This document shows positions 1-335 of a DNA stretch of 335 nucleotides, one piece after another. The notes under the pieces were generated by a model. That model was not told where the DNA came from. It made no database searches and saw only the letters and a list, made by a program, of their open reading frames with translations. The translations under genes were made by a program, and so were the position numbers. The stretch's first letter is position 1; every line of letters begins with the position of its first letter. The stretch comes from a phage: the sequence record KY304109.1; one strand, 5' to 3'.

Positions 1-335
1 CGCACGATACCACTTCACCTCGGGCAATGGCGCAAACTCTGCGGAATCTGACGCTGGGTAAACCATTGGGCGACAGCCAACCGGCGCAGCTGGTGCAATG
101 GATGAAAGGCAATACCACCGGTGCACCGAGCATTCAAGCTGGACTGCCTGCTTCCTGGGTTGTGGGGGAAAAAACCGGCAACGGCGGCTATAGCACAACC
201 AAACATATCGCGGTGATCTGGCCAAAAGATCGTGCGCCGCTGATTCTGGTCACTTACTTCACCCAGCCTCAACCTAAGGCAGAAAGCCGTCGCGATGTAT
301 TAGCGTCGGCGGCTAAAATCGTCACCGACGCTATA
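1..335 (+). CDS. blaCTX-M: Class A extended-spectrum beta-lactamase, CTX-M family (group 1-like), partial CDS truncated at both window edges; first complete codon at nt 3, last at 333-335; no start or stop codon in window
   Basis: The + strand frame starting at nt 3 is open for 111 codons. Its translation matches the C-terminal third of CTX-M enzymes as I recall them: [83 protein letters not shown]. The nucleotide sequence from about nt 207 to 329 matches my recollection of blaCTX-M-15 exactly. The frame is missing from the supplied ORF track, presumably because it has no stop codon in the window. Confidence 0.95.
171..179 (+). other. blaCTX-M: Codons for the conserved class A beta-lactamase KTG motif (Ambler Lys234-Thr235-Gly236)
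   Basis: Codons aaa-acc-ggc encode K-T-G in the context [11 protein letters not shown], the position of the KTG box on the B3 strand of class A enzymes. Ambler numbering was derived by counting back from Arg276 and forward from Asp179 and is approximate. Confidence 0.85.

Follow-up and report, generated by a model that had tools for sequence, protein, structure and literature searches.

Identity and extent of the coding sequence

The window, that is, the whole 335-nucleotide stretch of DNA analysed here, is the last (3') third of a blaCTX-M-15 gene (Table 1). ORF translation left only frame 3 of the plus strand open from end to end, and its product corresponds to the 111 C-terminal residues of a class A beta-lactamase of the CTX-M-15 type. 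The 3' end of the window coincides with the last sense codon of blaCTX-M-15, so that the stop codon lies outside. The catalytic motifs S70-x-x-K73, S130-D-N and E166 are encoded upstream of the window, which begins at Ambler position 178.

By megablast against 72,556 plasmids and 5,426 E. coli genomes, the closest match was blaCTX-M-15/-55, which aligned to positions 6-330 with 96.0% identity; it came from 2,517 of the plasmid records and 1,188 of the genomes. The alignment to blaCTX-M-15 ended at window position 330. When blastn was applied to positions 55-215, CTX-M-15/-55 again came first (91.9% identity), followed by CTX-M-3 (91.3%) and CTX-M-1 (90.7%), and no plasmid closer than 91.9% over this interval was found. 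The blaCTX-M-15 gene of pC15-1a (NC_005327.1) served as the reference for all base and codon differences. Base by base, 317 of the 335 window positions are identical to this reference, in the same reading frame.

The translated product was also compared with curated profiles. The NCBIfam blaCTX-M model matched over model positions 182-290 of 291 with 210.1 bits (E 4e-62) versus 239.1 bits for the same fragment of CTX-M-15; the curated cut-off of this model is 570 bits, which applies to the whole protein and is out of reach for a piece of 111 residues. The NCBIfam blaKLUC model was matched as well (E about 1e-62), and the bla_class_A model returned 120.5 bits for the window versus 138.3 bits for CTX-M-15. 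The traits of the CTX-M-15 lineage, namely near-identical DNA, the KTG box at 234-236 and Gly240, are all present. Ser237, a trait of CTX-M cefotaximases that is invariant across CTX-M-14, -15 and -39, is missing: the codon at 180-182 reads AAC and encodes Asn.

Two other candidate features were rejected. An antisense ORF at 15-272 (minus strand, 85 codons, TTG start) also runs uninterrupted through wild-type blaCTX-M-15, so it is a by-product of the coding strand and no evidence of a gene. A match to the Rfam mir-138 precursor at 82-128 (plus strand) scored 19.3 bits (E 0.12), below the gathering score of 50, and was attributed to chance.

Table 1. Features of the 335-nucleotide window, with residues in Ambler numbering
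Feature	Coordinates	Strand	Basis or remark
blaCTX-M-15-type ORF fragment	3..335	+	codons 181-291 of the precursor, Ambler about 178-290
R178H (CGT>CAC, two bases), 5' edge of the window	3..5	+
A198P	63..65	+	codon comparison
R204P	81..83	+	codon comparison
T209Q (two bases)	96..98	+	codon comparison
A219P	126..128	+	codon comparison
Segment with five residue changes plus synonymous changes at 185 and 197	168..206	+	codon comparison
D233E (GAT>GAA), end of strand beta3; partner in the short D233-D246 hydrogen bond	168..170	+
KTG box K234-T235-G236, unchanged	171..179	+	codon comparison
S237N (AGC>AAC), substrate-carboxylate contact residue	180..182	+
G240 codon GGC	186..188	+	D240G signature common to CTX-M-15/-55, not CTX-M-3/-1
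G242S (GGC>AGC), beta3-beta4 turn	192..194	+
N245K (AAC>AAA), start of strand beta4	201..203	+
D246H (GAT>CAT), start of beta4; second partner of the D233-D246 bond	204..206	+
126-base block identical to blaCTX-M-15	205..330	+	no difference
G289A (GGT>GCT) and L290I (TTG>ATA), last two codons, 3' edge	330..335	+

Differences from blaCTX-M-15

Eighteen base differences separate the window from blaCTX-M-15 (positions 4, 5, 63, 82, 96, 97, 126, 137, 170, 181, 185, 192, 197, 203, 204, 331, 333 and 335). Together they alter 15 codons, 12 of them nonsynonymously (R178H, A198P, R204P, T209Q, A219P, D233E, S237N, G242S, N245K, D246H, G289A and L290I) and three synonymously (a Q codon at 137, G238 at 185 and T243 at 197). 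Not one indel, ambiguous base or stop codon was present over the 335 bases. Changes reach the very ends of the window (4 and 5 on one side; 331, 333 and 335 on the other), and the difference-free stretch from 205 to 330 has a probability of 0.003 under uniform placement. The last five bases read CTATA versus GTTTG in blaCTX-M-15; a junction with unrelated sequence is equally possible at this point.

The initial annotation had reported D233E, S237N, G242S, N245K and D246H as five substitutions clustered on the B3 strand around the KTG box. Codon comparison with pC15-1a, in which the segment 168-206 reads DKTGSGGYGTTND, showed that these five calls are exact and that the Ambler numbers are right. 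Once the seven changed residues outside this segment are taken into account, however, the clustering turned out to be within chance, both for residues (five of the 12 changed residues within 13 codons, scan P 0.14) and for bases (seven of the 18 differences inside 39 nt, scan P 0.08). As to the strand, D233 and S237 do lie on beta3, but G242 belongs to the turn, and N245 and D246 to beta4 (PMC13584895; our fragment model). The annotation was silent on D233 and D246 as bond partners and on the seven changed residues beyond 168-206.

Selection or noise

As controls for natural divergence we used CTX-M-14 (group 9) and CTX-M-39 (group 25) over the same 111 codons. Measured against CTX-M-15, CTX-M-14 differs at 19 residues, CTX-M-39 at 17 and the window at 12. 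The ratio of synonymously to nonsynonymously changed codons is 44:19 in CTX-M-14 and 44:17 in CTX-M-39, versus 3:12 in the window. Differences at first, second and third codon positions number 17/7/50 and 13/7/53 in the two controls and 6/5/7 in the window, and transitions relate to transversions as 42:32 and 43:30 versus 7:11.

We then compared the window with a null model of 20,000 simulations, in each of which 18 random substitutions were placed on blaCTX-M-15. Random hits changed 12.8 +/- 1.8 residues, where 12 are observed, and 6.0 of 18 were expected to be transitions, where seven are observed. Because 57% of the random 18-hit mutants were also free of stop codons, the absence of a stop codon from the window is uninformative. 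The signature of purifying selection (an excess of synonymous, third-position and transition changes) was not found in the window, and all three quantities lie at random expectation; nor was there any sign of adaptive selection.

To assess the fit to the protein family, we selected 161 relatives with under 80% identity to CTX-M-15 from the 1,207 matches of an exhaustive search of 1.84 billion representatives and constructed a class A profile from them. CTX-M-15, CTX-M-14 and CTX-M-39 scored 174.3, 177.2 and 169.7 bits on this profile and the window 153.0 bits. For 3000 random stop-free 18-hit mutants the score was 148.6 +/- 6.6 bits, which places the window at their 74th percentile. The lower scores of the window on the NCBIfam blaCTX-M and bla_class_A models point the same way. 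By every measure, the window substitutions behave like unfiltered random hits.

Direction of change

The new bases, read on the plus strand, are A in ten cases and C in eight, with G and T never introduced. By type, the substitutions comprise five G>A, five G>C, three C>A, two T>C, two T>A and one A>C. Given the original bases, an outcome restricted to A and C has a probability of about 4e-5, and simulation in which any two-letter set was allowed gave 5e-5. The replaced base was G in 10 of the 18 differences (P 0.02). The pattern is thus asymmetric between strands, with G>C as frequent as G>A, and such an A/C-only, strand-asymmetric outcome is not known to arise from mutation in bacteria or from error-prone polymerases. 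An APOBEC-like or other context-specific signature was ruled out, as the contexts of the G changes have no common motif.

As for the source of such noise, one may speculate about a base-calling error specific to certain channels, about ambiguity codes that were replaced by whichever base comes first in the alphabet, or about an alteration made in silico.

Natural use of the changed residues

Among the 161 class A relatives, position 233 is D in 87% and E in 5.6%, and position 237 is T in 40%, S in 39% and N in 3.7%. The other three replacements in the segment are rarer: position 242 is G in 84% and S in 0.6%, position 245 is N in 92% and K in 0.6%, and position 246 is D in 94% and H in none. 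Outside the segment, position 204 is R in 82% and never P, and proline occurs in 0.6% at position 198 and in 5% at position 219. None of the 161 relatives combined two or more of the five replacements. The conserved second-shell residues D233, N245 and D246 are all replaced in the window, by E233, K245 and H246. A published class A survey gives similar usage, with D233 in 96.8% (E in 2%), N245 in 92.5% (K unlisted) and D246 in 96.4% (H unlisted) (PMC9112487).

We considered whether E233 and H246 form a natural compensatory pair. This idea found no support, because all eight natural E233 sequences keep D246. A Glu/His pair at 233/246 might in principle re-form a bond.

The allele was not recovered from any collection searched. 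An exact search for the variant 39-mer (168-206) found no match in GTDB species genomes, JGI metagenomes or IMG/VR, and a 30-mer spanning A198P and R204P likewise had none in GTDB genomes and JGI metagenomes. The exact window protein was absent from about 15 billion sequences by exact look-up, and a word-indexed protein search returned nothing nearer than wild-type CTX-M-15. In the PDB, where CTX-M-15 was the best match, no solved structure with these residues was found. A literature search yielded no paper that contains any two of D233E, S237N, G242S, N245K and D246H, and we found no catalogued allele or deposited sequence with the 18 substitutions.

Close CTX-M relatives that share one of the changed residues were either frameshifted or error-ridden fragments (P0017, P0019, P0039 and P0045) or P0005, a CTX-M-14 fragment with N245K, W251C and S274R. 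Two UniRef entries from E. coli read VVGENTGGGGF and VVGEKPGGGGV in the KTG region. Since these aberrant public fragments are affected in the same region, degraded CTX-M is a recurrent database contaminant.

Predicted consequences for the protein

In a sub-Angstrom CTX-M structure, D233 (beta3) and D246 (beta4) share a hydrogen bond of 2.47 Angstrom, and D233 is also bonded to N214 of the 213-220 loop (PMC13584895). N245 places residue 68 and hence T71 and S70, and substitutions of second-shell residues mostly reduce activity (PMC9112487). The KTG region contacts the substrate carboxylate, as the initial annotation had stated (PMC13584895). Its remark on the role of Ser237 with cefotaxime was also borne out: S237 hydrogen-bonds the C4 carboxylate of cephalosporins, and S237A lowers kcat/KM for cefotaxime 3-fold, leaving kcat unaffected (PMC10139949).

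With KTG and G240 unaltered, the protein, if made, would still be expected to fold as a class A enzyme. It would probably be a destabilised and catalytically weakened cefotaximase and not a re-tuned one, because the D233-D246 bond and the N245 contact disappear, the G242 turn gains a side chain and the serine at 237 is replaced, on top of R204P and the remaining changes. This damage need not be complete. In BlaC, the D233A and D246A mutants are folded and active, with a Tm lowered by 5-6 degrees C and shifted conformations of Ser130 and Ser70 (PMC13584895), and the window protein therefore need not be dead. The initial annotation had proposed, on condition that the changes are real, an altered spectrum, altered inhibitor susceptibility or inactivation. 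The evidence favours inactivation or impairment and lends no support to a tuned spectrum or an inhibitor change. It is extremely unlikely that the allele is real and functional, with a Glu233-His246 interaction replacing the Asp233-Asp246 bond and S237N, G242S and N245K reshaping the carboxylate/oxyimino pocket into a new spectrum or inhibitor profile.

An AlphaFold2 model of the fragment was of moderate confidence (pLDDT 73.6). Values below 50 were confined to fragment residues 60-62 (window 180-188: N237, G238 and G240) and may reflect the modelling of a C-terminal fragment alone. AlphaFold confidence is an unreliable readout of the effects of point mutations. In the model, P21 is a loop residue, and P27 and P42 both occupy the second position of a helix. 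This weakened the idea that the three prolines act as helix breakers, as loop and first-turn positions tolerate proline.

Origin of the substitutions

We consider it likely that the window represents the 3'-terminal third of blaCTX-M-15 bearing 18 non-natural noise substitutions, and not a new variant. The substitutions would have been added either by base-calling or consensus error or by an artificial random alteration of blaCTX-M-15, in silico or in vitro, and natural selection would have left them unfiltered. The five changes around KTG would then simply be the densest part of the noise. Because the 18 changes behave like random noise across the whole window, these five active-site changes are most likely an artefact as well. 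Likewise, the condition 'if real', under which the initial annotation had placed its functional proposals, most likely fails, given the scatter of 18 substitutions, their A/C-only direction and the missing public counterpart.

Several observations bear on the noise reading from either side. That degraded CTX-M fragments (P0017, P0019, P0039 and P0045) exist in public data supports it. Against it stand the lack of indels, which low-quality Sanger or long-read data would typically contain, the lack of ambiguous bases, and the empty stretch 205-330, which would not be expected of plain uniform noise. Natural enzymes do use E233 and N237 as minority residues, and the AlphaFold2 fragment model puts the three prolines at tolerated sites; both points also speak against noise.

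A physically real laboratory product, for instance a CTX-M-15 derivative cloned from a designed library or from one with heavy mutagenesis, and whether functional or not, is an unlikely origin, though it would fit several features of the window. The changes are substitutions only, the frame is preserved in a backbone that is otherwise exactly CTX-M-15, and the statistics look unselected. Five G>C changes among 18, with none to G or T, would nevertheless hardly fit the usual error spectra of error-prone polymerases. Mutational scanning routinely takes CTX-M as a model, but published CTX-M libraries vary one or two active-site codons and not 15 (PMC10962969). Moreover, no solved or published variant with these residues was found.

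Descent from CTX-M-15 by natural selection, with the beta3-beta4 region remodelled for a change in spectrum or inhibitor response, appears very unlikely. It could draw on the influence of S237 and the KTG neighbourhood on cefotaxime binding, on the occurrence of E233 and N237 in natural class A enzymes and on the intact reading frame. Named CTX-M alleles also typically differ by nonsynonymous changes only. However, 12 changes in 111 residues are far above what separates named group-1 alleles and reach well beyond the active site. The profile fit has fallen to the level of random mutants, and natural enzymes make practically no use of H246, K245 and S242. An A/C-only direction is no selective signature, the clustering is not significant, and none of the collections searched contains the allele.

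It is highly improbable that the window stems from a decaying pseudogene, that is, a bacterial copy of blaCTX-M-15 in which neutral mutations pile up after its release from selection. Such decay would agree with the profile score, the codon positions and the nonsynonymous changes, all of which lie at random expectation. But a divergence of 5.4% is implausibly large for a gene that has spread only in recent decades. In addition, neutral bacterial mutation is transition-biased and strand-symmetric over a short stretch, whereas the window shows 7:11 transitions to transversions and A/C only, lacks indels and stops and leaves 126 bases untouched.

The chance of a mosaic, in which positions 1-204 were recombined in from an unsampled Kluyvera-type relative and 205-330 come from CTX-M-15, is next to negligible: it would match the restriction of the differences to 4-204 and the last five bases around a 126-base identical block, but a natural donor would bring mostly synonymous, third-position differences (44 synonymous codons in CTX-M-14 and in CTX-M-39), unlike the 3:12 ratio of the window, and no database sequence is nearer than CTX-M-15 over 55-215. 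Recombination with another CTX-M group was ruled out, since at only two of the 18 sites does the window share its base with CTX-M-14 or -39, and its differences are not of the synonymous kind.

Implications and comparison with known systems

Were the sequence real, it would represent the first class A beta-lactamase with Glu233/His246 in place of the near-universal Asp-Asp bond, in the world's most widespread ESBL, and the variant would be relevant to resistance surveillance. Under the noise reading, naming the window a new CTX-M allele would put an erroneous variant into resistance catalogues. Eye-catching active-site substitutions should be weighed against the ratio of synonymous to nonsynonymous changes, the codon position, the direction of change and the fit to the family profile.

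Compared with blaCTX-M-15/-55, the group 1 ESBL that is its best match in every collection, the window shares KTG, G240 and all of 205-330, but differs by 18 substitutions and 12 residues. With CTX-M-14 and CTX-M-39 it has family and fold in common, and the protein divergence of both from CTX-M-15 is comparable to that of the window or greater. In these two enzymes, however, the divergence is mainly synonymous and at third positions, and DKTGSG-YGTTND and the profile score are kept, none of which holds for the window.

The BlaC mutants D233A and D246A and the second-shell mutants (PMC13584895, PMC9112487) concern the same D233-D246 bond and the adjoining N245 that are perturbed in the window. 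But the BlaC mutants are single engineered alanines in a mycobacterial enzyme, whereas the window replaces both partners and ten other residues. The window also resembles the public fragments P0017, P0019, P0039, P0045 and P0005, which derive from CTX-M-15 or CTX-M-14 and have an aberrant KTG region (for example VVGENTGGGGF, VVGEKPGGGGV and GTTKD). Most of these fragments are frameshifted, whereas the window carries substitutions only.
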